Source: a bacterium
GTDB lineage: Bacteria; Zhuqueibacterota; Zhuqueibacteria; Oceanimicrobiales; Oceanimicrobiaceae
Direction of reading: 5' to 3'
Assembly (NCBI GenBank): GCA_037446635.1
Contig: JBBIIG010000014.1
Span: 16,294-80,293 of the forward strand
Length of the DNA: 64,000 nucleotides
The notes below the pieces were generated by a model, which had not been told where the DNA came from, searched no databases, and was given only the letters and a program-made list of their open reading frames with translations. Both the position numbers and the translations under genes were made by a program. This document shows, in pieces, positions 29,928 through 64,000 of the stretch (positions are counted from its first letter, which is position 1; each line of letters starts with the position of its first letter).

Positions 29928-29942
29928 TGGCATCGCCTTTGC
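29928..29942 (+). promoter_or_regulatory. Candidate sigma-54 promoter for the DUF5666-repeat cargo gene
   Basis: TGGCAT-CGCCT-TTGCG with correct spacing, 57 nt upstream of ATG 29999. Confidence 0.6.
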
Positions 29943-29998
29943 GTGATGAACGTCCAAACCAATTCACCCAATTTATTTCAAAAATAGGAGGATTTGTC

Positions 29999-37298: not shown

Positions 37299-37973
37299 TT
37301 GCTCAAAGCCGTGCTCTTTGATTACGATGGCGTATTAGTTGACAGCATGAATTATCATGTGCAGGCCTGGCAGATCGTGTTCAAAGAATTCAACATCGAG
37401 ATTCGCCCCGAAGAGGTGTTGCTTGCCGAAGGCGCCCGTTCCATTGAGTTGGCGCGTCAAATTTTGTCCCAAAATAACATTCTCATTGCGGAAGATAAAT
37501 TAGTGGAGTTTGTAGAAAAGAAGCAGCGGACTTATCATGAAATCACCGGCGCCAAATTTTTGGAGGATGCGCGAAAGTTGATTCTGAAAGTAAAGAAGCG
37601 TGAGATGCGCGTGGGAGTGGTGAGCGGCGGCGCGCGCTTCGATATTGAAAATTCGCTGCCGCCGGACGTGCGCGGGCAAATCGATGTGATTATTTCCGGC
37701 GAAGACGTTCGCCGCGGCAAACCCGACCCCGAAGGATACCTGAACGCCGCGCAGAAGTTAGGGGTATTGCCAGCCGAGTGTTTGGTGATCGAGAACGCGC
37801 CGTTTGGCATTGAGGCCGCGAAACGCGCCGGGATGAAAGTGGCCGCGGTGGCGACGACCTTGCCGCGGCATCTGTTAAATGGCGCCGATTTTCACGCCGA
37901 TGATCTCGCGCACTTGAATAAACAATGGCCATTAATTTTTAAGCCGCAAGTCCAAACCCAGAAAGTCGATTGA
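37299..37973 (+). CDS. HAD-superfamily hydrolase (beta-phosphoglucomutase-like subfamily IA)
   Basis: Motif I LFDYDGVLVDS, motif II VVSGG, motif III/IV KPDPEGY...IENAPFGIEAAKRAGM. TTG start with a GGAGG RBS. Confidence 0.85.
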   Translation: MLKAVLFDYDGVLVDSMNYHVQAWQIVFKEFNIEIRPEEVLLAEGARSIELARQILSQNNILIAEDKLVEFVEKKQRTYHEITGAKFLEDARKLILKVKKREMRVGVVSGGARFDIENSLPPDVRGQIDVIISGEDVRRGKPDPEGYLNAAQKLGVLPAECLVIENAPFGIEAAKRAGMKVAAVATTLPRHLLNGADFHADDLAHLNKQWPLIFKPQVQTQKVD

Positions 37974-37996
37974 TCTTTTTACCCAAGGAATGGTTC

Positions 37997-39166: not shown

Positions 39167-40776
39167 AAAATTTATCCGCTCGACAAGGATTTGTTATCCT
39201 CGTCGAACAATTATTTGGGGGATTTAATCCCTTTTCAATGATTCGCGGGAATTGGGACTGCATTGACTGTGTCAATGCTGCTGCAGCGACACAGTCGCCG
39301 CACTCCAAGAGGTTATTTTTTCCGAGACGATTGGTTTTAATAGCTGTTCTTTTGTTAGCGCCCTTTTTTAGCTTCTCCAACTCCTTCTCCCAAATTCTTC
39401 ACAAATACGCTTTCCGTCTCGATGCCCAGCCCAAACCCGGATTGGCCAGCAACACCATCACCGACATTAAAGTTTTCGGCAGCGCAATCTGGTTTGGCAC
39501 CGGCGACGGCCTGAGTCGCACCAAAGATGACGGCCTGTCATTCGAATCCTTTCGGCACGAGCAGGAGATTGGCCGCGGCGGCGTTTCAGGGTTGGCAATT
39601 GGCGACGGCATTATCTGGGTGGCCACGGGGTTTGATTCCACCACTCCGTTGGGCCGTTTTCAAACCGGCGGCGGCCTGGCCTATTCGAAGGATGACGGCC
39701 AGACCTGGGTGTTCGTTCCGCAGCCCGGCCCGACTCCCATCAACAACATTACATTTGATATTGCGCTGCGCGGCGACGAAGTGTGGATCACCAGCTTTGC
39801 CGGCGGCCTGCGCAAATCGGTGGATCTCGGACAGTCGTGGGAGATCGTTTCGCCGGATTCGTTCATTTTCGATCCGGTGGCGCACCTCAACCACCGCGTG
39901 TTTTCGGTGACCGTGGTGGACAGCATTCTTTGGGTGGGCAGCGCCGGCGGCATCAATCGCTCCAACGATGGCGGCATCACCTGGACTAAATTCAGCCATC
40001 AAAATCAAGCGCGTCCCATTTCCGGAAATTTTGTGGTGGCAATTGGGCGGCAGCGTTATGCCAACAAAGACATCATTTGGGCTGCCACGCGCGAGACCAC
40101 CATCGAGTCCGGCGACGAAACCGAATTTCGCGGCGTGTCGTGGAGCGAGGACCAGGGCTTCACCTGGCGCACGGCCTTGGAGGGCGAAACCGTTCACAAT
40201 TTTGCTTTCGATGATTCGGTGGTGTACGCAGCTTCGGATAACGGCCTGTGGAAATCCATTGACGGCGGCGAAACCTGGGCGCTGTTTCCCAACATTGTAG
40301 ATGTCTCGAATGGCCGGCAGATTCTTGCTAATGAAGTTTTTTCGGCCGGCGTCAGCGCGGGGCACACGCTGTGGGTTGGCACACGCAATGGTTTAGCCAA
40401 AACTTCCGATAACGCGCTCACCTGGGAAGTCTTTCAAGTATTTGAACCCACCGGCCGCGACGGCGCGCCGCGCACCTATGCGTATCCCAATCCTTTTTCG
40501 CCCAGCGTTCACAACAATTTGGGCGGAAGAGGACACGTACGCTTTCAGTACAACACCATCAACCCCACGCAGGTTACATTAAAAGTCTATGATTTTGCGA
40601 TGAAGCTGGTGCGAACCGTGGTGGCGGATGCGCCGCGCCCCGGCAGCAGCGACATTTATGAAACCTGGGATGGCACCGATGAAGGCGGCCGGCAGGTGGA
40701 CAACGGCGTCTATTTTTATCGGCTGGAGTTGTCCGGCGACGGCACGTATTGGGGAAAATTGGTTGTTCTGAATTAA
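39163..40776 (+). CDS. BNR/Asp-box beta-propeller protein with a C-terminal T9SS/FlgD-Ig-like sorting domain
   Basis: Six SxDxGxTW boxes (SKDDGQTW, SVDLGQSW, SNDGGITW, SEDQGFTW, SIDGGETW, TSDNALTW). C-terminal YAYPNPFSP...GVYFYRLELSGDGTYWGKLVVLN. The start is uncertain because a hairpin at 39265-39296 lies in the annotated N-terminus, ahead of the signal peptide. Confidence 0.8.
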   Translation: MKNLSARQGFVILVEQLFGGFNPFSMIRGNWDCIDCVNAAAATQSPHSKRLFFPRRLVLIAVLLLAPFFSFSNSFSQILHKYAFRLDAQPKPGLASNTITDIKVFGSAIWFGTGDGLSRTKDDGLSFESFRHEQEIGRGGVSGLAIGDGIIWVATGFDSTTPLGRFQTGGGLAYSKDDGQTWVFVPQPGPTPINNITFDIALRGDEVWITSFAGGLRKSVDLGQSWEIVSPDSFIFDPVAHLNHRVFSVTVVDSILWVGSAGGINRSNDGGITWTKFSHQNQARPISGNFVVAIGRQRYANKDIIWAATRETTIESGDETEFRGVSWSEDQGFTWRTALEGETVHNFAFDDSVVYAASDNGLWKSIDGGETWALFPNIVDVSNGRQILANEVFSAGVSAGHTLWVGTRNGLAKTSDNALTWEVFQVFEPTGRDGAPRTYAYPNPFSPSVHNNLGGRGHVRFQYNTINPTQVTLKVYDFAMKLVRTVVADAPRPGSSDIYETWDGTDEGGRQVDNGVYFYRLELSGDGTYWGKLVVLN

Positions 40777-40842: not shown

Positions 40843-41823
40843 TTGACCCATTTTTTTAAGACGATTTTTTTGGTCTTTTGCCTGCTGGTCTCCGCCACCA
40901 CGGCGCTGGCGCAGGCCGGTAAGGCCGGCGCCTTTTTACGGCTGGGCGTCAGCGCCCGCGCCAAAGCCATGGGCGACGCCTACACCGCGATGGCGCGTGG
41001 CGCCGAAGCCAGTTATTACAATCCGGCGGGATTGCCTTTTCTCGAGCACAAGGAAGTTGCGGCGTCGTACTGGCTGCTTTCCCTCGATCGCCAATTCACT
41101 TACATCGGTTTTGGATTGCCCATTCACCCAAAGGAAGATAGCACTGGCCGCGGCGCCTTCGACGGCGGCTTCGCGCTTTCGTGGATTCACGCCGGCGTGG
41201 ACAATATCGATGGCCGCGACACCGACGGCCAGTCCTTTGGCGACATCTCCAACTCGGAAGACGCGTTCGTGTTTTCGTTTGCGCTGAATCCGGTGCAGAA
41301 ATTATCGCTGGGACTTTCGGTGAAGATTTTGTGGAACCGCTTTCCCGATCTCGGAATTGATGGGCAAACCATCTCCGCCACCGGCGTGGGCTTCGATTTT
41401 GGCGCCCTGCTGACGCCGGCGCCGTGGCTCACGTTGGGCGTTTCGGTGCGCGACATCAATTCCAAATATACCTGGAACACGCAGGATTTGTACGGCGAAG
41501 ATGACGGCTCCGAAACCACTAACAAGTTTCCAAAAATTTTGCGGGTGGGCGCCGCCTTTCAGCCGCCGCAAATTCCGAACGTGACCTTGGCATTTGATTT
41601 TGAGGACAGCAAAGAGCTGGACAACCGGGTTCACTTCGGCGCAGAGGCGGTACTGGGAAACCATCTGTTTCTCCGCAGCGGCTTTGATGACGGTTCGCTC
41701 GCTGCCGGCGCCGGCTACGGTTTCGGCGTGTTCGGCAGGATGTCGCAGATCAATTATGGCTTTGCCTCCGCTGGTGACCGTCCGGAGGCCGAGCATGTTT
41801 TCAGTTGGGTGTTTCAGTTTTAG
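40843..41823 (+). CDS. PorV/PorQ-family outer-membrane beta-barrel protein
   Basis: AAGGAG RBS with a TTG start, then a signal peptide. AGAFLRLGVSARAKAMGDAYTAMARGAEASYYNPAGL is the family N-terminal signature as I recall it. Alternating beta pattern, C-terminal F. Confidence 0.75.
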   Translation: MTHFFKTIFLVFCLLVSATTALAQAGKAGAFLRLGVSARAKAMGDAYTAMARGAEASYYNPAGLPFLEHKEVAASYWLLSLDRQFTYIGFGLPIHPKEDSTGRGAFDGGFALSWIHAGVDNIDGRDTDGQSFGDISNSEDAFVFSFALNPVQKLSLGLSVKILWNRFPDLGIDGQTISATGVGFDFGALLTPAPWLTLGVSVRDINSKYTWNTQDLYGEDDGSETTNKFPKILRVGAAFQPPQIPNVTLAFDFEDSKELDNRVHFGAEAVLGNHLFLRSGFDDGSLAAGAGYGFGVFGRMSQINYGFASAGDRPEAEHVFSWVFQF

Positions 41824-41947: not shown

Positions 41948-42868
41948 GTGAGAAATATTCAAATTACAACCGTATTGATTTGCTCGCTCGGCGTTTTTTT
42001 GAACTCAGCCTTTGCCCAAACCGGCAGCGCCGGCGCCACCGGGCTGGCGTTTCTGAAATTGGGCGTTGGCGCGCGCGCTAACGGCATGGGGGAGGCCTTT
42101 GTCGCGGTTGCCAATGACGCCGCCGCCACGTTCTGGAATCCGGCCGGTCTTTCCCAACTCGAACGTTCGCATTTCACCTTCACGCACAGCGAATGGATTC
42201 AGGATATTTCCAGCGAGTTTCTGGCGTTGGCGTTTCCGGCTTTTGGCGGCGTGACCGGCTTCAGCGTTTACGTCAACAATGTGGGCGGCATTGAACGCCG
42301 CGTCAACCCTTCTGAAGAACCGCTTGGAACCATTGACGCCAACGATGTTGCTCTGGGCGTCTCGTATGGCCGCTCGTTGGGTTCATCCATGCAGGCCGGC
42401 ATCACGGTAAAATATCTTTACGAGAAAATTTACCTGGAAAGCGCTTCGGGGTATGCTTTTGATTTCGGCCTGAATGTTCAACCTTTTGGCAGCGCGTTAA
42501 ATTTGGCGGTCGCGGCGCAGAATTTAGGCTCAATGAATGAGCTGCTGGCCGAGTCCATCGATTTGCCGAAAACCCTGCGCTTCGGCGCCGCTTATTCGTT
42601 TCCGCTGGCCGCGCTCGATGGCGCGGTGGTGCTGGCTGCAGAGGGCGTCAAAGTTGTGGAGAACGATCTGCGCGGCAGCTTCGGCGCCGAAGTGCAATTG
42701 AAAAAAATGCTGGCTTTACGCTTGGGATACCAGAGTGGCTACGAGGATAGAAGCTTGGCCGGCGGGTTTGGTTTGTCCTTCCAGCGCTACCACCTCGATT
42801 ATGGCTACACCCCGGTTGGTTCGAATTTAGGCGATACCCATCGTTTTTCCTTCGGCCTGGATTGGTAA
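41948..42868 (+). CDS. PorV/PorQ-family outer-membrane beta-barrel protein (second paralogue)
   Basis: Signal peptide. GSAGATGLAFLKLGVGARANGMGEAFVAVANDAAATFWNPAGLSQL. C-terminal ...HRFSFGLDW. Confidence 0.8.
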   Translation: MRNIQITTVLICSLGVFLNSAFAQTGSAGATGLAFLKLGVGARANGMGEAFVAVANDAAATFWNPAGLSQLERSHFTFTHSEWIQDISSEFLALAFPAFGGVTGFSVYVNNVGGIERRVNPSEEPLGTIDANDVALGVSYGRSLGSSMQAGITVKYLYEKIYLESASGYAFDFGLNVQPFGSALNLAVAAQNLGSMNELLAESIDLPKTLRFGAAYSFPLAALDGAVVLAAEGVKVVENDLRGSFGAEVQLKKMLALRLGYQSGYEDRSLAGGFGLSFQRYHLDYGYTPVGSNLGDTHRFSFGLDW

Positions 42869-50657: not shown

Positions 50658-51560
50658 ATGTTCAAACGAATCAGCGTGGTGGTTAATCCCGTTGCTGGCG
50701 GAAAGAAAGACAAATCGCAGCTCATCGCCAGGCTCACGAAGTTGCTTTCCGCCCCCGGGCGCAGCCTCTCCATTCAGTACACCGAAAAATCCGGCGACGC
50801 CAACCGCTTGGCTCGCGAAGCCGTGCAGCAAAATTCACAGCTCGTGGTGGTGATCGGCGGCGACGGCACCGTAAACGAAGTCGGCTCGGCCCTGGTTGAT
50901 ACCGACGTGCCCATGGCCATTATCCCGCGCGGCTCGGGAAACGGCTTTGCCCGGACGCTGCGGCTGCCGCCGCAATTAGAAGACGCCGCGGCTTTAATCA
51001 ATGATGGAGCGATTTCGCTAATCGACGTTGGGCAGGCGAACGAGCGCTACTTTTTTATGCTAATGGGAGTTGGCTTTGATGCCCGGATCGGCGAGCGATT
51101 TAACGCGCACTCCTCACGGGGGCCGCTGCCGTACTTCTATCTCAGCGCCAAAGAATTTTTTAACTACCGGCCCGCGCCGCTTCAAATCAACTTCAACGGA
51201 AAAGCTTTAGCGCTGGCGCCGTTTATGATTATCATCGCCAACGCCCAGCAGTTTGGCAACAACGCGCGCATAGCGCCGCACGCGATTTTGAACGACGGCC
51301 TGCTCGATATTTGCATCGTGCGCCGCCTCTCTTTTTTCGATCTACTCTTCGCACTGCCCAAACTTTTCAGCGGCCGCATTCACAATTATTCCGGTGTCGA
51401 GTTTTATCAAGCCCAACAGGTTCAGTTACAGCGCGAGCGCGCGGATTTTATCAACCTCGATGGCGAAGCCGTTTGGGAGGAAGCGGTGGTCAACGTTAGG
51501 GTGCTGCCGCGGCGCCTGAAAGTCATCACCCCAAAATTTTGCCCGGCGTTGGCGCCATGA
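50658..51560 (+). CDS. Diacylglycerol/lipid kinase family protein (YegS/BmrU type)
   Basis: VVVNPVAGGKK...VVVIGGDGTVNEV...IIPRGSGNGFAR... Confidence 0.85.
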   Translation: MFKRISVVVNPVAGGKKDKSQLIARLTKLLSAPGRSLSIQYTEKSGDANRLAREAVQQNSQLVVVIGGDGTVNEVGSALVDTDVPMAIIPRGSGNGFARTLRLPPQLEDAAALINDGAISLIDVGQANERYFFMLMGVGFDARIGERFNAHSSRGPLPYFYLSAKEFFNYRPAPLQINFNGKALALAPFMIIIANAQQFGNNARIAPHAILNDGLLDICIVRRLSFFDLLFALPKLFSGRIHNYSGVEFYQAQQVQLQRERADFINLDGEAVWEEAVVNVRVLPRRLKVITPKFCPALAP

Positions 51561-52213
51561 ATTCTCTGGTCATTTTTGTCAAACATCCCGCACCCTACAA
51601 GGTGAAAACCCGGCTCGGAGCGCAAATTGGTTATGCCTTAGCCGCCGACTTGTATAAAATTTTTATTGAACAAACCATCACGATGGCGGCGCGCAGCTCC
51701 GCCGACCGCGTGTTGATTGCGTATGAGTCGGCCGAGCGCGCTGACGACGTTAATTTGGCATTGCCCGCGGCGATGGCGGCGTTTCCGCAAACTGGCAGGG
51801 ATTTAGGCCAGCGGATGTTCAACGCTTTTCAACACACGTTTGCAGAAGGAGCCCATTCCACCGTGATCATCGGCAGCGACAGCCCCACGCTGCCGCGGCA
51901 TTTTCTAAAGCGAGCGTTCGATTATTTGGAACATAAAGATTTAGTGCTTGGCCCGGCGCAAGATGGCGGCTATTATTTGATCGGTTTAAAAACTCCCGTG
52001 CAAAAACTTTTTGAAAACATCGAATGGAGCTCGCCAGTTGTTTTGGAAAAAACGCTGGCGCGCGCCGAACAATTGCAGCTCTCTTTTGATTTGCTGCCCG
52101 TCTGGTACGACGTCGATGAAATCGAATCGCTGAAGCGCGCCGCCCACGATGACGCCAGCGGCCAGATTAAAAACTTCCTGCTGCGAAACTGTCCCACCAT
52201 CCAGCTTGATTGA
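51557..52213 (+). CDS. DUF2064 (TIGR04282-type) putative glycosyltransferase
   Basis: ATGA overlap with the kinase gene. LVIFVKHPAPYKVKTRL...DLGQRMFNAF...IIGSDSPTLP...VLGPAQDGGYYLIGL. Confidence 0.8.
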   Translation: MNSLVIFVKHPAPYKVKTRLGAQIGYALAADLYKIFIEQTITMAARSSADRVLIAYESAERADDVNLALPAAMAAFPQTGRDLGQRMFNAFQHTFAEGAHSTVIIGSDSPTLPRHFLKRAFDYLEHKDLVLGPAQDGGYYLIGLKTPVQKLFENIEWSSPVVLEKTLARAEQLQLSFDLLPVWYDVDEIESLKRAAHDDASGQIKNFLLRNCPTIQLD

Positions 52214-52214
52214 A

Positions 52215-52910
52215 ATGATTTTAGCCGCCCACCAACCTGGCTATTTGCCGACGATTGATTTTTTCTACAAAATGTCGCGCGCGGATGTTTTTGTTTTGGC
52301 GGACGATCTGGTTTTTACGACCCACTCGGATATTAATCGCGCCAAAATTAAAACCGCCCGCGGCCCGAGTTGGCTGACGGTGCCAGTTCGCACGAAGAGC
52401 CGGCGCGGCCAGCTCATTCATCAAGTCGAAACCGATCACCAGCAAAATTGGCGCGCCAAGCATTGGAACACCCTGCGCATGAATTACGCCTACGCGCCCT
52501 ATTTCGAGCTGCACTCCGACTACTTTGAAACTCTTTACTTGTTCGGCGATCCTCCGGCCCGTTTGTTTGAATGGAACGCCGCCGTCATCGATTATCTCGC
52601 GGCCTCGCTGAAATTAAAAACTAAATTGATTCGCAGTTCGGGCCTTAACGTTCACGCCCGCGGCCAGGAGTGGGTTTTCGGCGTCGCCGCCGCCACTGGC
52701 TGTCGCACTTATTTGGCGGACGCAGCCTTCGCGAGGTATCTATCAAAAGAAAAATTTGCTCAACATGGACTCGCCCTGCAATTCTTGCAAAATCCCAAAT
52801 TGCGATACCACCAACAATTTGGCGATTTCATCAGTGGACTTTCTATTGTCGATCTCCTGTTCAACGAGGGAGAACGCAGCCGCGAAATTTTGATGGAGAA
52901 CTCGCCGTGA
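52215..52910 (+). CDS. WbqC-family protein
   Basis: Starts 2 nt after the previous stop. ILAAHQPGYLPTIDFFYKMSRADVFVLADDLVFT...WLTVPV...NWRAKHWNTL. Confidence 0.8.
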   Translation: MILAAHQPGYLPTIDFFYKMSRADVFVLADDLVFTTHSDINRAKIKTARGPSWLTVPVRTKSRRGQLIHQVETDHQQNWRAKHWNTLRMNYAYAPYFELHSDYFETLYLFGDPPARLFEWNAAVIDYLAASLKLKTKLIRSSGLNVHARGQEWVFGVAAATGCRTYLADAAFARYLSKEKFAQHGLALQFLQNPKLRYHQQFGDFISGLSIVDLLFNEGERSREILMENSP

Positions 52911-53590
52911 AGGTAGTCGTCATCATCCCGGCTTTCAATGAGGAGCAGTCCATCGGTCTGGTTTTACAGGATATTCCGCGGCAGCTTGTTGACGCCGTGA
53001 TCGTCGTCGATAACGGCTCGCGCGATCGCACTGCGGAACTCGCCCGGCTTGGCGGCGCGGAGGTGGTTCGCGAAACACGCCGCGGCTACGGCAGCGCCTG
53101 CCTCGCCGGCATTAAACACGCAAAAACAATGAACCCCGACGCCGCGGTTTTTCTCGACGCGGATTTCAGCGATCACCCGCAGGAGCTGGTCGCACTTTTG
53201 GAAAAGATCGAAAGCGGCTTCGATCTTGTCATCGGTTCCCGCACTCTCGGAAAGGCCGAGCCCGGCGCGCTGCTGCCGCAGGCGCGTTGGGGAAACTGGT
53301 TGGCGGTTTCGCTGATTAAATGGTTCTTTGGATTTCGTTACACCGACCTCGGGCCATTCCGTGCCATCAAGTGGGACAAGCTGTTGGCGCTGGATATGCA
53401 GGATCGCAACTTTGGCTGGACCGTTGAAATGCAGGTGAAGGCAGTAAAAGCAGAATTGCGGATTACCGAGGTTCCGGTGAGTTACCGCAAACGCATTGGC
53501 ATCTCGAAAGTAACCGGCACGATTTCGGGAACCATCAAAGCCGGTTACAAAATCATTTTCACCATCTTAAAATATGCGTTTCGGAAATAA
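52907..53590 (+). CDS. Family-2 glycosyltransferase (polyprenol-phosphate glycosyltransferase-like)
   Basis: GTGA overlap with wbqC. VVIIPAFNEEQSIGLVLQDIP...VIVVDNGSRDRTAELA...RRGYGSACLAGI...DADFSD. Confidence 0.85.
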   Translation: MKVVVIIPAFNEEQSIGLVLQDIPRQLVDAVIVVDNGSRDRTAELARLGGAEVVRETRRGYGSACLAGIKHAKTMNPDAAVFLDADFSDHPQELVALLEKIESGFDLVIGSRTLGKAEPGALLPQARWGNWLAVSLIKWFFGFRYTDLGPFRAIKWDKLLALDMQDRNFGWTVEMQVKAVKAELRITEVPVSYRKRIGISKVTGTISGTIKAGYKIIFTILKYAFRK

Positions 53591-54355: not shown

Positions 54356-56344
54356 TTAAATTTTGAGATCGATTTGCACGCCGAAGCGTCGGTCGCGTTG
54401 GCCTTGAATTTCGTCGGCGCCGCTGCCGATGACGTCGGTATCGTCGCGAAAGGTCTCCGCATATTTCGCCGAGAACCCCATGAACCTGAACTGGTAGTTT
54501 ATAAGTACATACCAACGCGCGCCCTCGCCGAATAAGCTGCGGTTGGTGGCCAAGCCGGGCAGATCGGGCTCGTATTGAAACACCGCGGAGTCGAAGGAGT
54601 CGGTGTCAAAAATGGTTAAACGCGCGGTCAGGGTCAGGGCTTTCGTGGGCTGGAGGCGAACATCCTGGTACATCAAAAAACCCTGCTCATCGGTTTCTGC
54701 GACCGCCGAGTTGAAGCGATTCGTTTTGAACGAAACGAATTCCCAGCGGCTGCGCAACCGCAGCTGCCGGCTGAGATCGTAATCCAATTGCAGCCGCCCC
54801 TGCCGTTTTAGAATCTCAACGAATTCGCGCCGCTCCCGCATTAATTCATCCTCGAACGTTTCAGTTTCTTGTTTTTGATTTTCGCGATAGCGCAGCGTCA
54901 GCCGCAGACGGTTGGAGAATCGCTGCTCAATCTGCGCCAAAAATTCGTTGCCATCGAACGGCAGCGGCTCAAAAAACGTCCGCCACGGATGGGTGAAAAT
55001 ATCGTAGTAGGCGCTGACCGCGGTGCGCTCGCCAATTTTGAAATGAAGGCCGGAATAATACCCGCGCTCGTTTTGGGTGCTGCCGTTGGCGTCGGCGAAG
55101 GCGAAGCCGTGCAGGTTCTGAAAATCTTTTCCGTAATCGCGAAACAGAAACGCCAGTTGGATTTTTTTGAAGTCGAGCAGGGCGCCGGCCAGCAGCGCGC
55201 GGCCGCCGTTTTTTGATCCCGCTGCTTCTCCAAAAAGATTGGCGCTGGGAATTCGCCAATCCCAGTGAAATCCGGCCACGGCGTTTTTTCTGCCGCGAAA
55301 TGCGAAGCGCTGCCGGACAAGATCGGGATCGTTGATGGTTTTGTCGAATTTTGAAAAGTAAAAGCTGCCGCCAACCGTAAGCTGCAACGGCAGTTGCAAT
55401 CGCAGCGCCGCGCCGGCCAGCGATTCCGTGAGCGCGTCCTTTTTGCTGAGCTCGTTTTCGTTGCGGTGGAAACCAGTGGCGAAAAGTCCGGAGACTTCAT
55501 TTTCGGAAGTGAGAGTAGCATCCAACTTGGCGCGCGACGCAAAAATGGTGGCGGCGAAATGTTTCAAAGTCACATGCGCGACCCCGCCGTGCAGCGCGGC
55601 GTTTTCATCTACTGTGCTGTAGCCGCGAAATTCACGGCCGCGTTTTTTGATGGGGAAAATCGCGTCGGCGCTTTTGGAAAAGCCGTACGGCCCCCACAGC
55701 GTCAGCCCCTGCCCGATTTGCAGCAGATAATTTCCAACCAGAAAAGAGAAGTTTGGGTGGGCGTCCACGGCGACGTAGTAGAGCCGCAGATCGTCCCAGC
55801 GCCGTTCGCCGCTGTCTTTCTCCAATAAAAATCCGCCGGAAATTTTTTCAGCGATTTGATATTGAATGCGGTGATAAATTTTTTGCGGCGAGTAGAGATA
55901 ATCGCCCTCCTCGAAGCCAACCGGCCGATCGACGCGATCGCTCAGCCGGCTGCGCAGGTTGAGGCGAATGCTTTTTGGGGCGGGCCGCGCCGGCTTTTTT
56001 ACAAACACCAGCTCGCGCAAATATTCGTACGTTTCGGCATTCACCCCGTCAACGCGCAGTAATTCTTCGACGCGCTTAAATTCGCCGCGCCGCTGGCGGT
56101 AGCGCAAAATGTTGTCGCGCAGAACCGGGGTGAGTCCGGGAATGATCTCCAATTCCTCCAGCGTCGCCGAGTTGAGATCGAGGGGATATTCTTTCAAGTT
56201 CAAAAGAATTTCGTAAAGCTCGGATTGTTCCGAGCTTTCTTCCTGGCTTTCCAGCAGTTTTTCCGCCATGGTTTCCTGGGCGAAAAGGGGGGCAGAAAGG
56301 CAAAGATAAATTACGAAGAAAGATGTTGTAGATAGGTTTTTCAT
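54356..56344 (-). CDS. Secreted protein: N-terminal ComEA-like helix-hairpin-helix domain plus a ~540 aa beta-rich (barrel-like) domain
   Basis: Signal peptide. LDLNSATLEELEIIPGLTPVLRDNILRYRQRRGEFKRVEELLRVDGVNAETYEYL. The remainder alternates beta-strand patterns and ends ...RRFGVQIDLKI. Confidence 0.75.
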   Translation of the reverse strand: MKNLSTTSFFVIYLCLSAPLFAQETMAEKLLESQEESSEQSELYEILLNLKEYPLDLNSATLEELEIIPGLTPVLRDNILRYRQRRGEFKRVEELLRVDGVNAETYEYLRELVFVKKPARPAPKSIRLNLRSRLSDRVDRPVGFEEGDYLYSPQKIYHRIQYQIAEKISGGFLLEKDSGERRWDDLRLYYVAVDAHPNFSFLVGNYLLQIGQGLTLWGPYGFSKSADAIFPIKKRGREFRGYSTVDENAALHGGVAHVTLKHFAATIFASRAKLDATLTSENEVSGLFATGFHRNENELSKKDALTESLAGAALRLQLPLQLTVGGSFYFSKFDKTINDPDLVRQRFAFRGRKNAVAGFHWDWRIPSANLFGEAAGSKNGGRALLAGALLDFKKIQLAFLFRDYGKDFQNLHGFAFADANGSTQNERGYYSGLHFKIGERTAVSAYYDIFTHPWRTFFEPLPFDGNEFLAQIEQRFSNRLRLTLRYRENQKQETETFEDELMRERREFVEILKRQGRLQLDYDLSRQLRLRSRWEFVSFKTNRFNSAVAETDEQGFLMYQDVRLQPTKALTLTARLTIFDTDSFDSAVFQYEPDLPGLATNRSLFGEGARWYVLINYQFRFMGFSAKYAETFRDDTDVIGSGADEIQGQRDRRFGVQIDLKI

Positions 56345-56388: not shown

Positions 56389-57513
56389 TTAATTGCTTTC
56401 TAAAGTTACAAATGGTTTGATTTTCTCCAGTTTGTTTTTTCCGATTCCCGGGACGTTGAGTAAATCGTCAATTTTTTGGAAGGGGCCGTTTTGCTCGCGA
56501 AATTCCAAAATGGCGCGCGCCAAACTCTCGCCGATGCCCGGCAGTTTTTTGAGATCATCAATCCTGGCGGAATTGATGTTAATTTTGCCGGGCGGAGATT
56601 CCGGATCCGGCGCCGGTTCGATTTTAGTCGAATCGATAGGCAGGATTTCGGGAGAAACCTCCACCACCGGTTTGGGTTCGGGCGGCGGTTGTTTTCCAAA
56701 ATGAATGGCCAGCGAAGTTTGATGAGTGAGCCCGAGATCGTTGTGGGTGAAGAAGGCGTAATCAATGGCGACGCGCTGGATGGCGACGCCGAATCCCGCG
56801 GAGAAGCGGCTGGGGTGATTGGCCGCGCCGGCGCGAATGGCTAAATTTGCCAGCGGCTTGAATTCGCAGCCGAAACGCGCCTCTGCGGCAAAGCGCACGT
56901 CTTTGAAAATTTCAAAATTCAAAATAAGATTGTTGAGGGGATGAACCGAAACGCCACTAGAAAAAATTTGCGGCGCATGTTCGTCGGTTTGTCCAATGGT
57001 GGGACGGTTGACGTTTTTGGCGACGAATCCAAGATTGATCTCAGACGAGAGTGGTACTAAAATTCCAAGATCGAGTCCTACTGCGCCGCCGGAGCCGTAG
57101 CCCTCGATGTGAACGGTTTGATAGCGCAGGCCCACGCCGTAAAAAAGCTTGCGCTGATAGTGGTGGCTGAACGTTAGGCTGAGCGCCTGCTCGCGGTAGA
57201 GGCCGTTGCCAAAGGTGAGCGCACCCAATCCCACGCGCCGATTCCAAATCGGGAAACTGAGGGCGAGAGTTCCAAAGTTGATCTCGGAAAGCCCGAACGG
57301 CTTTTGATAAAAAATCGCCAGCTCGGTTCCAACCAACTGACCCAACCCGCCGACGTTGAGAAAGACGGCGTCGGCGGTGTTGGCCAGCGCCACATAGGTG
57401 GCGCCCATTCCCAGCGACCGAGCGCCCACCGGCCACTCTTCCGCGCCCACTGGCTCTGGAACGTACAATAGTGCAACCACCGCGAAGAAGAAAAAAATCT
57501 TGCGTTGAGTCAT
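56389..57513 (-). CDS. PorV/PorQ-like beta-barrel fused via a Pro-rich linker to a C-terminal ComEA-like HhH DNA-binding domain
   Basis: Signal peptide. VGARSLGMGATYVALANTADAVFLNVGGLGQL plus barrel strands. Linker QPPPEPKPVVEVSPE...PAPDPESPPG. Then ININSARIDDLKKLPGIGESLARAILEFREQNGPFQKIDDLLNVPGIGKNKLEKIKPFV. Confidence 0.8.
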   Translation of the reverse strand: MTQRKIFFFFAVVALLYVPEPVGAEEWPVGARSLGMGATYVALANTADAVFLNVGGLGQLVGTELAIFYQKPFGLSEINFGTLALSFPIWNRRVGLGALTFGNGLYREQALSLTFSHHYQRKLFYGVGLRYQTVHIEGYGSGGAVGLDLGILVPLSSEINLGFVAKNVNRPTIGQTDEHAPQIFSSGVSVHPLNNLILNFEIFKDVRFAAEARFGCEFKPLANLAIRAGAANHPSRFSAGFGVAIQRVAIDYAFFTHNDLGLTHQTSLAIHFGKQPPPEPKPVVEVSPEILPIDSTKIEPAPDPESPPGKININSARIDDLKKLPGIGESLARAILEFREQNGPFQKIDDLLNVPGIGKNKLEKIKPFVTLESN

Positions 57514-57614: not shown

Positions 57615-58505
57615 GTGGCAACCACGAAACTCTCTTATTTGCGCTTCCAAATGCTTCCCCTCCTTTCCTCGATAAGTTTAGCAATTGCGGTTCTGCTGCC
57701 TTCACGGGCAGCGGCGCAGGCGGTGAAGGCGAACGTGAACGTTATCATCGATAAGCTGCCTATTGAAAAACAGGAAAAAATGAGAAACTTCCACCGCGTC
57801 GTCAAAGACTACATCGAAAACGCCAATTGGTTTTTGGATGACGACGCCGTGCCCATCGAAGTGACCCTGCAAATGTTTCTCACCGATATTCCCTCCAACA
57901 TCGAAGATCGCTATCTCTGCGAGCTACTGGTCTCAAGCGCGGACGTGCAGTACTTCGATAAGCGCTTCCGTTTTCCGTTTCAACCGGGAACGCAATTGGT
58001 TTACAGCGAACAAGCGATTGACCCGCTTACCGGCGTGATCGATTTTTACCTGAACCTGGTTTTAGGCAATGAGCTGGATAAATACAGCGGCTTTGGGGGA
58101 GACGTTTACTACAAACGAGCGCAAAGCATTGCGGCGCTGGGCAAGTTCGTGCGCACGGAATTTGTGCGCGGCTGGCCCGAGCGCGAACAACTGATTAAAC
58201 GGGTGTTCGAGGAGCCATTTATCACCTTCCGCAAAATGAAGGATTTCTATTTTTATGGGCTGTACGTCCGCGAAAAAAATCTCGCCGACGCCCGCAAAAA
58301 TGTGAAGATTGCTTTGGACATGCTCGAAACTGTCATCGAGAAGAAAGGCGATCTGGATGAGCCGCGACAGTTTTTAAACGCGCACTACTTGGAGTTTATC
58401 GATCTTTTCAAAGACTACGAAAACAAAAAAGAGATTTTCAAAAAGTTGATCAAGTTAGATTCGGCTCACAGAGAATTGTATGAAGCGCACGTTGGGGAGT
58501 CGTGA
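57615..58505 (+). CDS. DUF4835 family protein (PorD-like T9SS-associated protein)
   Basis: Signal peptide. VKANVNVIIDKLPIEKQEKMRNFHRVVKDYIENANW...PIEVTLQMFL...DPLTGVIDFYLNLVLGNELDKYSGFGGDVYYKRAQSIA follows the DUF4835 pattern as I recall it. Confidence 0.7.
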   Translation: MATTKLSYLRFQMLPLLSSISLAIAVLLPSRAAAQAVKANVNVIIDKLPIEKQEKMRNFHRVVKDYIENANWFLDDDAVPIEVTLQMFLTDIPSNIEDRYLCELLVSSADVQYFDKRFRFPFQPGTQLVYSEQAIDPLTGVIDFYLNLVLGNELDKYSGFGGDVYYKRAQSIAALGKFVRTEFVRGWPEREQLIKRVFEEPFITFRKMKDFYFYGLYVREKNLADARKNVKIALDMLETVIEKKGDLDEPRQFLNAHYLEFIDLFKDYENKKEIFKKLIKLDSAHRELYEAHVGES

Positions 58506-59136
58506 GTGAACAGCGACAATTTATAAATTGTTTGGAATAAGTCAAGAGCTTTTTTTCACTGACATCATTTTATACATTAGTATTACGCAACAAGTACACT
58601 CTTTAGTATTTCAATTACGGTCGAAGTTTTGATTGCGACAGATCAGTGAAAGGCAAGGGAACCGTGACTACTGTGCCACTTGTAAGTGTGCCCACGCTTC
58701 GTCCTCCTCTGGGCGATTCCAATCAACCGCCAGGGCTTCTTCCCTTAGCAGGGCGGTTATATTCAGTTTTTTCGTCAAGAGCTAAGATGGTTACAGGCGC
58801 ACGATTAAATGGATGGGGACGAGCTTTGATCAACCCACGGGCGTGCCGGATGTCTCGGCCAATGCAATTGGGATTGGATATCGGCATCCTCGTGCAAAAC
58901 CTGTTTCCACACTGGACGCTCTCCAGACAAAGCGAGTCGTTCCCCAAACGCTTTCGCAAGTTTGACCGCCCACCTGCGGCTGGGTTTCAGGGACTCTCCT
59001 TTGGCCTGGCGCTGGCCTGTTGACTGTCGCCGGCCAACTGTTGGCGGATTTGGGGCCGGGTGAAATTAGGAAGGCTTCAGTCGCAAATCTCAAAATGGTT
59101 TGGAAGAGATTGCCCAGATAATCCGTTAGCTTAAAC

Positions 59137-62100
59137 TTACCGCATCACCACCAACTTCTCCACCACCTCCACCTGCTCGTCGCCGCGGCGGGCGATGAGT
59201 TTGTATAAATACACGCCGTTCGCCAGCGCGTCGCCGTCGAAGTCGCGGGCGTTCCAGTGAAATTGATTGAAGCCGACGCGCGCCGGTAGAAAGTCCGCTT
59301 CGTGGATCAGACGGCCCGCGACGGTGTAAATTTTCAAGCGCACTTCATCGGCGTCCTGGGAGAGAATGTAGGTGAACGCGGTTTCGTTTTGAAAGGGATT
59401 GGGATAGTTCAGCACCTCGGTGATCTGGAAACGCGAGCTCACCTGAAACGCCTGCTCGAAATAATTGAGGTTGCCAGACGGGTCGCGGGCAAACACTTCG
59501 ATTTGATGATCGCCCTCGGAAAGGTTTGCGGTGAACAGGACCAGCGCTTTCAAATCGCGCTGCTCGGGGTTGGACTGCGGCAGAAATTGCGCCTGGCTCG
59601 CGCCGCTGCCGTAACTCACCTTTTGCTGATCGAGATAGACCACCACCTGCGAGGTGTCGGTGAACTGCGCCGGTCCGCGGTCGCGGATTTCCACCACCAC
59701 TTGCGGCGCGGCGGAAACAAAATCGCCGGCGGCCACCGTGCGGCCATCCATCTGTACGCGGATGACCGGCGCCAGCGTGTCGCGCACCACCCATAAACTG
59801 AAATCAGCGGCGTTGTTGGTCTCATCCAATTCCGTGATGCGATCATCCGCATCGAGTCGCACCGTCAGTTCGATTTTTCCGCTCAAACCACTAGTGGAAA
59901 TCAACGCCGGGTATTCGCGGATTTCATCCACCTGCAATCCGCCGACTTTCATTTTCTGCACTTCAGTTGCGCCCCGGAACATACTCACGAAGAAACTATC
60001 AGCGGCGGCGAGGCCAAAGTTGGCCGCGCCGATCGTGACCTGCGCTTCCGCGCCCACTTCGACTGTATCCTGCTGCACGTGAATCTCACTTTTGACGGTG
60101 GCGAGATCCGGCGGCGGAGAAAAATCCACTGACCATGACTGCAGCCGCGGCGTCGTCAATCCATTCGCGCTGGTGAGCGCGGCTGCCAATTGGATTTGTG
60201 GATAAGCCTGCGCCGGGATTTGCGAGAGGTCAATTTCGGCGGCGGAAAAGTTGGAGATCAACGTATCCAATGCGCTGCTGCCGCGCGGTTTTCCGATCAC
60301 CGAAAATATGATTTGATTTTGCTGATCTGATTCAAATGCGAGCCGCGCCGATTTCCACTCCAGCGCCGGCCCAATGAGCGGCGAAATCATGCGCCCGTTT
60401 TTCGCAAAACGATACAGCGTATCCGCGATGGCGATGGCGCCCTCCCCAACTTTTTTCCATTCTTCCGGCACCGTTCCAATGGCCGCACCCTTGCGCCCGA
60501 TGATCGCCCAGGCGTCGCGAAAGCGCACCTGCCGCGTGAATTGGCTGCCGATGCTTTCCAGCGCCAAATAGGCGCTTTCGGTCATGGAGACGCTGCCGTC
60601 ATCGCGAATGGCGGCGAGCACGATTCTGCCCTCTGGCAGCGCGTTGATGAACTGCGCCAGCGCCTCGGCGTTGGCGGTCGCGCCGTAGGTGTCGAAGCTG
60701 GCGCGATCCAGCAGCGCGCCGTCAGTCTCATCGAATACCGCGAGATTGTGGCCGCGCCTGTTGAGACTGACGTGCTCGTCGTTGCGCCACAGCCGCGCAA
60801 AGTTGCCGTCGCTGAACCCCGCCGATTCCGCCAGAAATGAAAGCTGGTTTTGTCGCAGCACCGCAAAGCGCGGCGTCACGCTAACGTTCTCCAAAAAATT
60901 GTTTTCAAATTGTTCGGCGCGCTGCTGCCGCCATTGCCCCGACGTTTGCGGCGAATAGGTGAACGATGCCGTCGCCCACGGCCCAAATTGTTCGCCGTCG
61001 AAGGTGCGGACGCGCCAGTAGTAAACGCCGGCCTGCGAAAGGTTCGGCTGCCAACGCGTGGTCAATCTCCCTTCGTCAATGGGCGGCGAGGCCTGGCGCA
61101 GCGGGCTGTCGAACGCCGCGCTGGTGTCGATTTCAAAAAAATAAACCAATCCCGCGATTTGAATTTTCGAATTGTTGGCGACCAGTTCCGGATTCGCGTT
61201 TTGCACCACGCCAAAATTCAGCGGCTTGATCAAAGTTAAGTCCGATGAGAAAACGGTAACCGTTTGTTCGGCAAAATTGTTGTTTTTGTCTGTTTCCGAA
61301 ATGCGATTTTGCGGATCGATTTCCACTTGAATGCGATACGCTCCGGGTTCATCCGGGAGACGCCACGACACCGTCACCGAATCGCGAAAGCCGGTTGGCG
61401 GGCGGATGAGCGCAGCGATCGGTGTCGAGTTGTTTTCGAAATCCAAAATCGAAATTTGCCCGGCCACGCTGTCAACCGGCTGCAGTCCGAAATTGCGAAT
61501 GACGGCGGAGATGGCCGCCGTGGAATCGGTGGTGAGCAGCAACTCGGGGGCGACGGTGATGTCCTCGTTTTGAATGCTCAACTCCGGTTGTGTGGGAATG
61601 TTCAACGCCAGCGCTGGGTCGCCGATGAGGATGTACTGGTCGATGACAAATTTGCTGCGCGGCTGGCCGCCGAGCCGCTGCCACAGTTGATACTTCGCGG
61701 AAGTGGTCGCCGCGCCCACGCTGCGCAAGGTGTCTTTGGTCACCGCGCGAAACAAACCATCGAGCAGAAAATAATCCTGAGTAATGTACCCAAAGCCCGC
61801 CGAGCCCCAGTATGCCGCTGCGCCGTTGGGGTGCAGCACAAACTCTTCGCTGAGACTGTTCAGCACGGGTTCGGCGAAGCGGGCGGAGTGGCAGGACATG
61901 CCGGTGATGAACGGGAACACCTCGCGGTTTTGCCAGTCGTCCGGGTGGCCGATGTCGATGTCCCACACCTGGCTGCCGGCGTGGCCGATGAAATTAACCC
62001 AGAGAACGCCATCGTGAATTTTCTCCGAAGCGGTACGTTTAAAATTCAGGGTGATGGCCTCATTGGTGGTTTTGTTGTACGGGATGGCGAGGCCGCTGAA

Positions 62101-64000
62101 GGGCGCCGGCGCGACGTGGTCGTTGACGAGTCGGGTGCCCTGCGAAAGAAAAATAGCTTGCTCGGTGGCGTTGATGCCGCCATTGGCAAAGGCAATTTCT
62201 TTGTTCCACGCGCCGAAGGGCAAGCGCTCGTACGCCATGATTTTGTCGATGACGATGGCCGCCTGCTCCGCGGTTTCGACCGGAATGCGCCCGACGAACA
62301 GATCCGGCAGCACATCGTCCGGGCCGTCGAGCAGGGCGTACCAGTTGTCGGCGACGAGGATGCCGTAGGAAGGAACGTAATTGGTTTTCACCGCGCCCGC
62401 CGATAGTTTTTTCGGATCCCACGAAGCGTCGCCGAGCAGAACCAAATAGGTGGGCGCCGGCTTTTCCCAAAACTCAAAGGCGTAACTCAAAAACGATTTG
62501 ATGGCTTCGGGCGCAATGATGCCGAAATTGAATTCGTCATAAATATCTTGCACATCGACGACCGCTGTCCGGAAGCCATTCCGATCGCGGCGGTAGTCTG
62601 CCAGCCTCTGCGCTTCATCCAAAAAATTTTTGTGGGTGATGATGATGTAATCCGCGGCGCTGGCGGTTGAATGCAGATCGCTATTTTTTTCTTTTTCAAT
62701 GCGGCTGATTTTTTTGAGGCCGGATTTCGACGCGGCGAAATAAAATGTCGCCGCGCTGGTGTCCGTGAACCCAGCCGAGTAGCCCAGCGCCGACTCGCCC
62801 CGCAGCGTGTCGCTGACTGCGGCCGGTCCGCTCAATCTCCTCGAAAGAACTTCTTTAGCCGAGCCCACCACCGCGCCCTTGCGGCCGACGAACGCCCAAC
62901 TATCGCGGAACGCAACTTGCCGAATGAGGCCGCTGCCAGCGGACTCATAAGCTTGATACACCGCTTCGTTCAAGTTGGTGGCGCCTTCGTCGCAAATGCC
63001 GGCCAGCACGATTTGACCCGCAGGCAGGGAATTCAAATAGGCCGCCAGTTCATCGGCGGCGGCCGGCGCGCCGAAGGGATCGAAGCGGCGAATTTCCGAG
63101 GCCCCGGTTTGGGGATCGATGGTCATGATGTGATGGCCGCGGCTGCGGAATTCCTGCACCTCAAAATGGGCGATGAGCTTCACAAAGTTGCCGTCGTTGA
63201 AGCCGGCGGATTCCACTTGAAAAAAAGAGGCGCGGTCGATTAGCGGTTGCCACCGCCTGCCTTTTAGAGGATCGAAAATGGTGATCTGTGAATCCGAAAA
63301 ATTGTGCAGCAAATAATTTTTGATGACGCGGCCGGGGTTGTCGGCTTTGAATTTGAAATGACTTTGCGCCGCGGCCGGCGTTCGTGGGTAGATGACGTCC
63401 ACCCAATCGAGATAGATTTGATTCACCAGCGCGCCGCTGCCGCCGACGAGATGCAGGTCGAAACGATTCTGGCCGTTGACGAAAAGCGACGTCGGCAGAA
63501 TTAGATTCCACAGCAGCTCTTCGCGATCGTCAAAGAAATTTTCGCCGACGAGTTGATTATTAATAGTGAGCCGGACGTGGTGATCCGGATTCACCGGATC
63601 TTGGGTCGTTCCCTGCAGCCGCAGTTTGAGCGTGCAATTTTCCACGGCGTAGTGCAGGCCACTTAAATTGAAACTGAAAATGTCGTGTTCGTTTTCAAAA
63701 ATGTAGCGGCCAATCCAGCCTTCATCCGGGTCGATTTCGCTGGAGCTGTTGGAGCGATGAAAGATAACTTCGCGCTCGAGATGCAGGGTTTCCCAATAAA
63801 ATGGGTCGGGCTGGTTTTGTGAAATTCCGGATGGAATCAATTGGTAGCGCGGCCCGGGGTCGCCATCGTCCGTGAGAAAATAGACATTGGTGTCGGTGTA
63901 AAAATCGTAGTAGCGATCGCTTGCCTGCGCAGGCAGGCGGCCGCGATGCCAGTCGGCGTAAAAGTAAATGGTGTCCAGCGGAGAAAATGTGACATTCTGC
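59137..64000 (-). CDS. Giant C25 (gingipain-type) cysteine peptidase, PorU-like, with two ILEI/FAM3-like domains, CARDB-like domains and a T9SS/FlgD-Ig C-terminal domain; 5' end outside the window
   Basis: The frame stays open from 63840 to the window edge (...YYDFYTDTNVYFLTDDGDPGPRYQLIPSG). C25 core: ADYIIITHKNFLDEAQRLADYRR...YLVLLGDASWDP...LPDLFVGRIPV. Catalytic NFIGHAGSQVWD (His ~61981) and ITGMSCHSARF (Cys 61891-61893). C-terminal LNYPNPFQNETAFTY...GVYLYKLIARRGDEQVEVVEKLVVMR. Confidence 0.9.
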   Translation of the reverse strand, partial: QNVTFSPLDTIYFYADWHRGRLPAQASDRYYDFYTDTNVYFLTDDGDPGPRYQLIPSGISQNQPDPFYWETLHLEREVIFHRSNSSSEIDPDEGWIGRYIFENEHDIFSFNLSGLHYAVENCTLKLRLQGTTQDPVNPDHHVRLTINNQLVGENFFDDREELLWNLILPTSLFVNGQNRFDLHLVGGSGALVNQIYLDWVDVIYPRTPAAAQSHFKFKADNPGRVIKNYLLHNFSDSQITIFDPLKGRRWQPLIDRASFFQVESAGFNDGNFVKLIAHFEVQEFRSRGHHIMTIDPQTGASEIRRFDPFGAPAAADELAAYLNSLPAGQIVLAGICDEGATNLNEAVYQAYESAGSGLIRQVAFRDSWAFVGRKGAVVGSAKEVLSRRLSGPAAVSDTLRGESALGYSAGFTDTSAATFYFAASKSGLKKISRIEKEKNSDLHSTASAADYIIITHKNFLDEAQRLADYRRDRNGFRTAVVDVQDIYDEFNFGIIAPEAIKSFLSYAFEFWEKPAPTYLVLLGDASWDPKKLSAGAVKTNYVPSYGILVADNWYALLDGPDDVLPDLFVGRIPVETAEQAAIVIDKIMAYERLPFGAWNKEIAFANGGINATEQAIFLSQGTRLVNDHVAPAPFSGLAIPYNKTTNEAITLNFKRTASEKIHDGVLWVNFIGHAGSQVWDIDIGHPDDWQNREVFPFITGMSCHSARFAEPVLNSLSEEFVLHPNGAAAYWGSAGFGYITQDYFLLDGLFRAVTKDTLRSVGAATTSAKYQLWQRLGGQPRSKFVIDQYILIGDPALALNIPTQPELSIQNEDITVAPELLLTTDSTAAISAVIRNFGLQPVDSVAGQISILDFENNSTPIAALIRPPTGFRDSVTVSWRLPDEPGAYRIQVEIDPQNRISETDKNNNFAEQTVTVFSSDLTLIKPLNFGVVQNANPELVANNSKIQIAGLVYFFEIDTSAAFDSPLRQASPPIDEGRLTTRWQPNLSQAGVYYWRVRTFDGEQFGPWATASFTYSPQTSGQWRQQRAEQFENNFLENVSVTPRFAVLRQNQLSFLAESAGFSDGNFARLWRNDEHVSLNRRGHNLAVFDETDGALLDRASFDTYGATANAEALAQFINALPEGRIVLAAIRDDGSVSMTESAYLALESIGSQFTRQVRFRDAWAIIGRKGAAIGTVPEEWKKVGEGAIAIADTLYRFAKNGRMISPLIGPALEWKSARLAFESDQQNQIIFSVIGKPRGSSALDTLISNFSAAEIDLSQIPAQAYPQIQLAAALTSANGLTTPRLQSWSVDFSPPPDLATVKSEIHVQQDTVEVGAEAQVTIGAANFGLAAADSFFVSMFRGATEVQKMKVGGLQVDEIREYPALISTSGLSGKIELTVRLDADDRITELDETNNAADFSLWVVRDTLAPVIRVQMDGRTVAAGDFVSAAPQVVVEIRDRGPAQFTDTSQVVVYLDQQKVSYGSGASQAQFLPQSNPEQRDLKALVLFTANLSEGDHQIEVFARDPSGNLNYFEQAFQVSSRFQITEVLNYPNPFQNETAFTYILSQDADEVRLKIYTVAGRLIHEADFLPARVGFNQFHWNARDFDGDALANGVYLYKLIARRGDEQVEVVEKLVVMR

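Follow-up and report, generated by a model that had tools for sequence, protein, structure and literature searches.

What could two copies of the ILEI/PANDER domain do on a bacterial cysteine peptidase? The question is raised by a stretch of 64,000 nucleotides from the genome of an uncultured, KSB1-type bacterium of the Zhuqueibacterota (assembly GCA_037446635.1, contig JBBIIG010000014.1, positions 16,294 to 80,293), which we call the window throughout and whose minus strand encodes, at 59137..64000, a peptidase of family C25 with a type IX secretion system (T9SS) sorting domain. A preliminary description, drawn from the letters of the window, had seen in this protein a gingipain-type core with two ILEI domains inserted and had suggested that glycan recognition is coupled there to proteolysis or transpeptidation. 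The present analysis confirms that both segments are genuine ILEI/PANDER domains and places the catalytic domain, as judged by sequence comparison, closer to PorU than to the gingipains. It also finds in many relatives a conserved linkage between the peptidase gene and a WecA-like gene, which is the most useful new observation of this study. We suggest that the protein is a sortase-type T9SS surface peptidase, from the PorU branch of C25, with built-in glycan-binding modules, and we regard the chances that this is right as about even.

Two ILEI/PANDER domains in one C25 peptidase

Both ILEI-like segments lie on the minus strand of a single open reading frame (ORF), where the preliminary description had located them. 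Copy 1 occupies 62836..63228, or amino acids (aa) ~205-335, with its Pfam core at 62872-63141, and copy 2 occupies 60451..60837, or aa ~1002-1130, with its Pfam core at 60484-60756; residue numbers of the window peptidase count from the TTG at 63840. The motifs that had been quoted from the two segments, SAGF(N/S)DGNF, RGH, DEG/DDG and FRD(S/A)WA..GRKGA, are all present. The copies align with each other at 48% identity over 125 aa (E 3e-39) and are therefore a real internal duplication. Chance or low complexity as a source of the repeat is ruled out by this alignment and by the match of both copies to an independent profile. The Pfam profile ILEI (PF15711) detects the peptidase strongly in two stretches (162 bits, E 4.8e-48, cut-off 27), so that the proposed family assignment stood; copy 1 alone reaches 76.7 bits over model positions 1-90 of 90, and copy 2 covers the same positions 1-90 at aa 1029-1119. 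When each copy was compared by phmmer with all sequences of the Protein Data Bank (PDB), only the ILEI family was significant. The best sequence match of both copies is the POMGnT1 stem (E 3e-11 and 2e-14), and the other matches are FAM3A (3e-9 and 3e-11), FAM3C (3e-9 and 6e-10), FAM3B (2e-6 and 6e-10) and TMEM2 (6e-5 and 5e-7). A profile built from 25 bacterial ILEI copies finds POMGnT1 at 1e-25 and FAM3B at 1e-24 and does not match PorU of Porphyromonas gingivalis.

The fold evidence comes from a model of copy 2, copy 1 being placed by its 48% identity to copy 2. The AlphaFold2 model (pLDDT 95.1, pTM 0.89) gives 21 Foldseek hits in the PDB with E < 1e-3, all of them to the POMGnT1 stem, FAM3A/B/C or TMEM2, with template-modelling scores (TM) of 0.76-0.82 across the single-domain hits, and the first hit outside the family has an E of 0.55. 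The superposition on FAM3 proteins and the POMGnT1 stem that had been proposed as a check is clearly positive and agrees with the three-layer beta-beta-alpha fold of this family, with a TM of 0.81-0.82 and a root-mean-square deviation (rmsd) of 1.9-2.5 Å on 5ggj, 2yoq, 5lc2 and 7ecq. The near-identity that had been described between the terminal block of these segments and that of human FAM3C is approximate only, since in the HMMER alignment FAM3C reads FRDNWVFCGGKG, and the block of the POMGnT1 stem, WRDTWAFVGRKG, is nearer to the window copies. The human POMGnT1 stem (5ggj, 5ggf) is thus the best match in both sequence and structure (TM 0.81, rmsd 1.9 Å, ~27% identity). However, the human protein is a glycosyltransferase of the eukaryotic Golgi and has the domain only once, whereas in the window a surface cysteine peptidase of a bacterium carries it twice. 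With FAM3A, FAM3B/PANDER and FAM3C/ILEI the window copies share the fold (TM 0.81-0.82), the Pfam family, the FRDxW..G.KG block and the Arg-Asp-Arg triad described below. FAM3 proteins are small, single-domain, secreted metazoan proteins, whereas the ILEI domains here form part of a protein that exceeds 1620 aa and is not cytokine-like. FAM3 proteins are stabilised by disulfides; by sequence, copy 1 has one cysteine and copy 2 has none.

The ORF that holds both copies is listed by program at 59137-63840, which gives 1567 aa from the TTG to the stop codon at 59137-59139, and the same frame is open for 53 more codons from 63840 up to the end of the window, so that 1620 aa can be read. Because the frame is open up to that end, the start of the gene lies outside the window and the N-terminus is cut. 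Judged from the nearest database relative (P0001, 1913 aa, 87% identical), some ~290 N-terminal residues are missing, and in this relative the part beyond the window-readable sequence comprises a signal-peptide-like start and a Propeptide_C25 domain at aa 40-202. Full-length relatives are generally ~1900 aa long, with a signal peptide and a Propeptide_C25 domain. All parts of the readable protein are on the minus strand. It begins with a beta-rich region at 63256..63999, upstream of ILEI copy 1, which a Pfam search assigns to no family and which is kept in relatives, being found by tblastn in nearly all related loci. Copy 1 ends ~63 aa ahead of the catalytic domain at 61603..62649 (Pfam Peptidase_C25, aa 398-746, E 1.6e-76). 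A first CARDB domain at 61270..61539 (5e-9) and a beta-rich segment without assigned family at 60838-61269 precede copy 2, which begins ~255 aa past the catalytic domain. One ILEI domain lies on each side of the catalytic domain, and neither interrupts it. A second CARDB domain follows at 59806..60111 (Pfam, aa 1244-1345), and the protein ends in a FlgD_ig-type, T9SS type A sorting domain at 59140..59406, which scores above the cut-offs of both TIGR04183 (27.5 bits, cut-off 23) and Pfam FlgD_ig (38.5, cut-off 27). Pfam Por_Secre_tail reaches only 19.9 bits on the same C-terminus, under its cut-off of 27.

As a member of C25 with a T9SS sorting domain the protein had been correctly recognized, but its catalytic core is not of the gingipain type. 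By sequence comparison it is PorU-like, with its His/Cys dyad intact. The solved structure nearest to it is that of P. gingivalis PorU (6za2, 2e-23 over ~370 residues), and the gingipains are far weaker matches (5e-5 for gingipain R, RgpB, 1cvr; 2e-3 for Kgp). The dyad consists of His620 (61981-61983, in NFIGHAGS) and Cys650 (61891-61893, in GMSCHSARF), and the GH(A)G and SC(H) motifs around them align with GHGG/TC of PorU and GHGS/AC of RgpB. The strict His...Cys pattern is found in 74 of 113 long relatives, and in 12 non-matching relatives that were inspected GH[AS]x...C is still present at the same spacing. The window protein shares with PorU the aligned C25 domain with its GH and C motifs and a T9SS C-terminal domain, and its gene lies in T9SS-rich DNA with PorV/PorQ-family and PorD-like genes. 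It differs in size, PorU having 1158 aa and the window protein family ~1900 aa, and in its Propeptide_C25 (seen in full-length relatives), two ILEI and two CARDB domains. RgpB and Kgp likewise belong to C25, have the His/Cys dyad and are exported by the T9SS. In contrast to the window protein, from which a Pfam search returned no haemagglutinin or adhesin domain family, they carry such domains, and they stand in another genomic context.

A putative sugar-binding triad and polysaccharide genes in relatives

Each copy carries three residues that fall, in the HMMER alignments, on Arg129, Asp179 and Arg207 of the POMGnT1 stem. In copy 1 these are Arg234 (63139-63141), Asp284 (62989-62991) and Arg312 (62905-62907), and in copy 2 Arg1029 (60754-60756), Asp1080 (60601-60603) and Arg1108 (60517-60519), all on the minus strand. 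The POMGnT1 numbering is mapped through the chain offset of 5ggj and the human sequence. According to the statement in PMC9802357 that cites Kuwabara 2016, this triad of POMGnT1 directly binds beta-linked N-acetylglucosamine (GlcNAc). The same residues are conserved in FAM3 proteins, and GlcNAc is bound in vitro by FAM3C, FAM3A and the Fam3L2 domain of Caenorhabditis elegans FAMP-1, whereas FAMP-1 Fam3L1, which lacks the counterparts of Asp179 and Arg207, shows no binding (PMC9802357). Among relatives of the window peptidase, the copy ahead of the C25 domain keeps the first Arg in 39 of 39 sequences, the Asp in 39 of 39 and the second Arg in 38 of 39, and the copy behind it keeps the triad throughout the KSB1-like clade. 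Such near-invariance points to selection on a ligand pocket, beyond the fold itself. A related use of the fold is known from adhesion devices of Streptococcus phages, in which it forms a carbohydrate-binding module with conserved Arg and Asp residues, proposed in the phage Tal protein to bind cell-wall polysaccharide (PMC9437275). Many predicted receptor-binding and tail-fibre proteins of phages, T4-type gp35 among them, contain the fold as well. These modules resemble the window copies in sitting on large multidomain surface-recognition proteins, but they belong to virion adhesion devices and not to secretion or anchoring enzymes. We therefore propose that both ILEI copies are candidate carbohydrate-binding modules, which would make them, like the stem of POMGnT1, a putative carbohydrate-binding module attached to an enzyme of glycoconjugates.

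The combination of ILEI, C25, CARDB and FlgD_ig domains recurs in ~90 of the best 120 database relatives. The named carriers belong to candidate division KSB1, Calditrichota, Ignavibacteriota and Rhodothermales. We also scanned genomes, one per species, with a narrower ILEI alignment and viewed each match within +/-10 kb. The scan gave 75 loci, with a Nitrospirales multi-ILEI gene and an Omnitrophota locus as two exceptions. In 61 of these loci the ILEI match has a C25 domain next to it on its contig, and the others are contig fragments that still carry the C-terminal region of the family. Three architectures were distinguished: ILEI-C25-ILEI in 35 loci of KSB1/Calditrichota, C25-ILEI in 26 loci, and C25-ILEI-x-ILEI-x in eight loci, with a protein of ~2380 aa. 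In the last of these (L063, L068, L070, L076, L078, L079, L081 and L082; protein P0083) the ILEI domain behind C25 and the domain that follows it are tandemly duplicated. By this distribution the copy behind C25 is the widespread one, and the copy ahead of it has been added in one clade only. Ignavibacterium-type relatives of the same length (P0095-P0116) have no ILEI domain and carry a beta-propeller of ~300 aa in the slot behind C25. A model of this propeller (P0103, aa 1184-1507; pLDDT 79) has the folds of glutaminyl cyclase and olfactomedin as its best matches, with a TM of ~0.5. A PorZ-like propeller was considered for this slot and rejected, the best matches being generic five-bladed propellers, none of them specifically PorZ-like. 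The propeller is therefore taken as a sign of a modular slot only, without analogy to PorZ.

The ILEI domain is less restricted to metazoa than the preliminary description implied, since it matches 5586 of 1.84 billion cluster representatives at E <= 1e-3, including phage, bacterial and protist sequences. Proteins with 5-10 tandem ILEI domains (P0121, P0122, P0130, P0178, P0210; L048:2500-10400) occur in dinoflagellates (Effrenium, Biecheleria), a Silvanigrellaceae bacterium, a metagenome-assembled genome of Nitrospirales and metagenomes; one of them has an Acyl_transf_3 domain, and these tandem proteins score above the C25 family on the bacterial ILEI profile. On the peptidases themselves PF15711 is already placed by automatic Pfam annotation, and the names that NCBI gives the relatives go no further than 'C25 family cysteine peptidase' or 'T9SS type A sorting domain-containing protein'. 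A literature search on ILEI, PF15711 or PANDER with PorU, T9SS, C25, bacteria or KSB1 found no paper that describes them. A PorU-family peptidase with ILEI domains is thus an unreported but database-visible domain combination.

The relatives further connect the peptidase with polysaccharide synthesis. In five of six relatives that were viewed with their genes called, the peptidase gene closes, or lies within, a cluster with a Wzx-type flippase, GT4/GT2 glycosyltransferases and Wzy_C. In the clustered relatives the gene directly upstream on the same strand encodes a Glycos_transf_4 protein or, in one of them, an Ignavibacteriota-type relative, is a WecG/TagA-family gene that abuts the peptidase gene. 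The upstream Glycos_transf_4 proteins match WecA best (E 1e-42 to 6e-48), with scores under the curated cut-off. WecA is the UDP-GlcNAc:undecaprenyl-phosphate GlcNAc-1-P transferase. Of the two-ILEI loci in the genome scan, 29 have 1.5 kb or more of DNA upstream, and in 25 of these a WecA-like gene lies at most 2.5 kb upstream on the same strand, most gaps being 20-400 nucleotides. By contrast, none of 20 single-ILEI loci has an upstream WecA-like gene, and GT4 genes lie within 6 kb in nine of these 20. In most two-ILEI relatives the gene stands within polysaccharide clusters and not in a porU-porV pair.

Sortase, protease or structural module

In P. gingivalis, PorU removes the C-terminal domain of T9SS cargo and transfers the cargo to anionic lipopolysaccharide (A-LPS), and PorZ, a propeller protein, takes hold of the glycan and offers it to PorU (PMC8545088; PMC11285876). 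Glycan delivery is there the task of a separate protein, unlike in the arrangement that we suggest for the window peptidase. This would be a cell-surface cysteine peptidase of ~1900 aa, itself exported through its T9SS C-terminal domain, whose two ILEI domains may hold a surface polysaccharide or lipopolysaccharide-type glycan in their Arg-Asp-Arg pockets. In most two-ILEI relatives this glycan could be the product of the cluster around the gene, which would be GlcNAc-primed because it is WecA-initiated. Holding the glycan would keep the enzyme on the glycan layer, and the ILEI domains could also present the glycan as acceptor while the C-terminal domains of cargo are cleaved, so that the fused domains would take over what PorZ does separately for PorU. 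The sortase-type reading is the most economical one because it accounts together for a PorU-like catalytic domain, a fold that binds sugars in all probed members with the triad intact, a near-invariant triad and an operon-like linkage to a GlcNAc-primed pathway; what we infer is that sugar is bound, which glycan it is, that the enzyme acts as a sortase and that binding and sortase action are coupled. The putative coupling of glycan recognition to transpeptidation, as first suggested, has gained independent support from the conserved triad and from the WecA-cluster linkage in relatives. In a bolder form, which we advance tentatively and think rather doubtful, the T9SS sortase of KSB1/Calditrichota would have absorbed glycan delivery through its two ILEI modules and would end the operon that makes its own GlcNAc-primed acceptor, as a self-contained anchoring module outside Bacteroidota, and the ILEI/PANDER fold would be an old prokaryotic reader of surface glycans.

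Several observations weigh against the sortase-type reading. The nearest NCBIfam model, T9SS sortase PorU (NF033707), gives 288 bits at a cut-off of 420, and the PorU2 model (NF052324) gives 276 bits at a cut-off of 450; since both scores are under the curated cut-offs, we name the protein PorU-family and not PorU. No polysaccharide cluster adjoins the gene of P0002, which at 80% identity is the closest full-length relative, and because the context there differs and the window's own upstream DNA lies beyond the window, the WecA synteny may not hold for the window genome. In the single-copy Ignavibacteriota-type proteins the triad of the copy behind C25 is lost (Tyr or Phe, and Gly), so that the ILEI domain is not always a GlcNAc binder. 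The same Arg-Asp-Arg triad is also kept in FAM3 proteins, whose physiological ligand is unclear.

The low PorU scores would also suit a degradative, gingipain-like secreted or surface protease, a T9SS cargo whose ILEI domains serve as substrate-targeting modules for glycoproteins, cell-wall debris or glycan-bearing detritus. The C25 fold with its intact dyad, the Propeptide_C25 of full-length relatives, and the protein's own T9SS sorting domain and CARDB domains, as in many secreted hydrolases, all agree with such an enzyme, and C25 genes of Calditrichota are routinely counted as extracellular protein-degrading 'gingipains' (PMC6365825). However, the catalytic domain is far nearer to PorU (2e-23) than to the gingipains (5e-5), the same-strand WecA/Wzx/Wzy linkage in 25 of 29 loci is unexpected for a nutritional enzyme, and the one genome in the scan that has two C25-family loci (L025, L043) carries a single gene there, split in two, as would fit a housekeeping gene present once. 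We consider a degradative role unlikely. The fate of the triad bears on a further view, in which the ILEI domains are structural or protein-binding modules without any role in sugar recognition, acting as spacers, in oligomerisation, or in docking to PorV/PorQ-type barrels or cargo. FAM3C/ILEI is known to dimerise, and its dimer structure 5lc4 is among the fold hits; T4-type gp35 uses the fold as a hinge connector of the tail fibre, Ignavibacteriota-type relatives keep the domain without the triad, and the beta-propeller in Ignavibacterium relatives indicates that the slot tolerates other folds. Against this, the triad hardly varies in either copy throughout the KSB1/Calditrichota clade, and every experimentally probed close homologue binds carbohydrate, save the triad-deficient FAMP-1 Fam3L1 (PMC9802357), which makes a purely structural role, in our opinion, quite improbable.

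The clusters themselves suggest one more possibility, that the peptidase serves the polysaccharide pathway and not the sorting of T9SS cargo. It might, for instance, have a single glycoprotein or S-layer component as its dedicated substrate, which it would process or anchor, or it might trim an intermediate in which glycan is linked to peptide; the ILEI domains would then read the nascent polymer. Its place as the last gene of, or within, Wzx/Wzy-type clusters in most two-ILEI relatives speaks for such a role, as does the fact that the PorV and PorD adjacency seen in the window is not kept elsewhere. Yet the cluster is missing at the closest relative and at three other loci, no conserved dedicated substrate gene was seen nearby, and the sortase reading accounts just as well for the PorU-like catalytic domain together with the T9SS sorting domain. 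We give the pathway role little credence. If the sortase-type reading is correct, it ties a peptidase to its glycan acceptor both physically, through the domains, and genetically, through the operon. To our knowledge, almost nothing is known of T9SS cargo anchoring outside Bacteroidota; the reading would offer a testable handle on it there, where the A-LPS/PorZ paradigm may not apply. It would also provide prokaryotic homologues for working out the ligand of the poorly understood FAM3/ILEI fold, and the abundant 'C25 gingipain' genes of sediment metagenomes, now counted as protein-degrading exoenzymes (PMC6365825), would have to be read differently.

Neighbouring genes in the window

Two genes lie within 3 kb of the peptidase gene, and we take them as context only. 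One is a PorD-like (DUF4835) gene at 57615..58505 on the plus strand, convergent with the peptidase gene, and the other is the downstream neighbour at 56389..57513 on the minus strand, a fusion of a weak PorV/PorQ-family barrel with a ComEA-type helix-hairpin-helix (HhH). In this fusion the barrel spans aa 28-272 (52 bits, cut-off 90) and the HhH DNA-binding domain aa 310-371. The joining of an outer-membrane barrel to a DNA-uptake-type domain is unusual, and the gene next to it, at 54356-56344 on the minus strand (662 aa), starts with the same HhH_3 domain. The gap of 630 nucleotides between the convergent PorD-like and peptidase genes (58506-59136) holds only short overlapping ORFs and has no Rfam match and no terminator-like site. 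Likewise, no RNA family and no terminator-like site was found from 56 to 64 kb, and no tRNA in the window.

The clear PorV/PorQ-family genes are 16-18 kb away from the peptidase gene, in tandem at 40843-41823 (101 bits) and 41948-42868 (172 bits; cut-off 90 for both), where they follow a T9SS cargo-like gene at 39163-40776, all on the plus strand. Counting the weak fusion at 56389-57513, the window thus has three PorV-family barrels within 64 kb. Neither the PorD-like nor the PorV/PorQ-family adjacency recurs in any of the 75 related loci, which rules it out as a conserved feature, and we use it only as a sign that the organism has T9SS genes. Three further plus-strand genes, at 20986-22647, 27660-28910 and 29939-32740, encode cargo whose sorting domains are of T9SS type A; one of the three also has Kelch/mutarotase-like repeats. 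The plus-strand ORF at 37970-39166 has a 'choice-of-anchor X' domain. A plus-strand cluster at 50658-53590 encodes a YegS-type lipid kinase, a DUF2064/TIGR04282 glycosyltransferase-like protein, a WbqC-like protein and a GT2 glycosyltransferase, and a YegS-type lipid kinase is also found ~6 kb from the peptidase gene in one of the related loci (L005).

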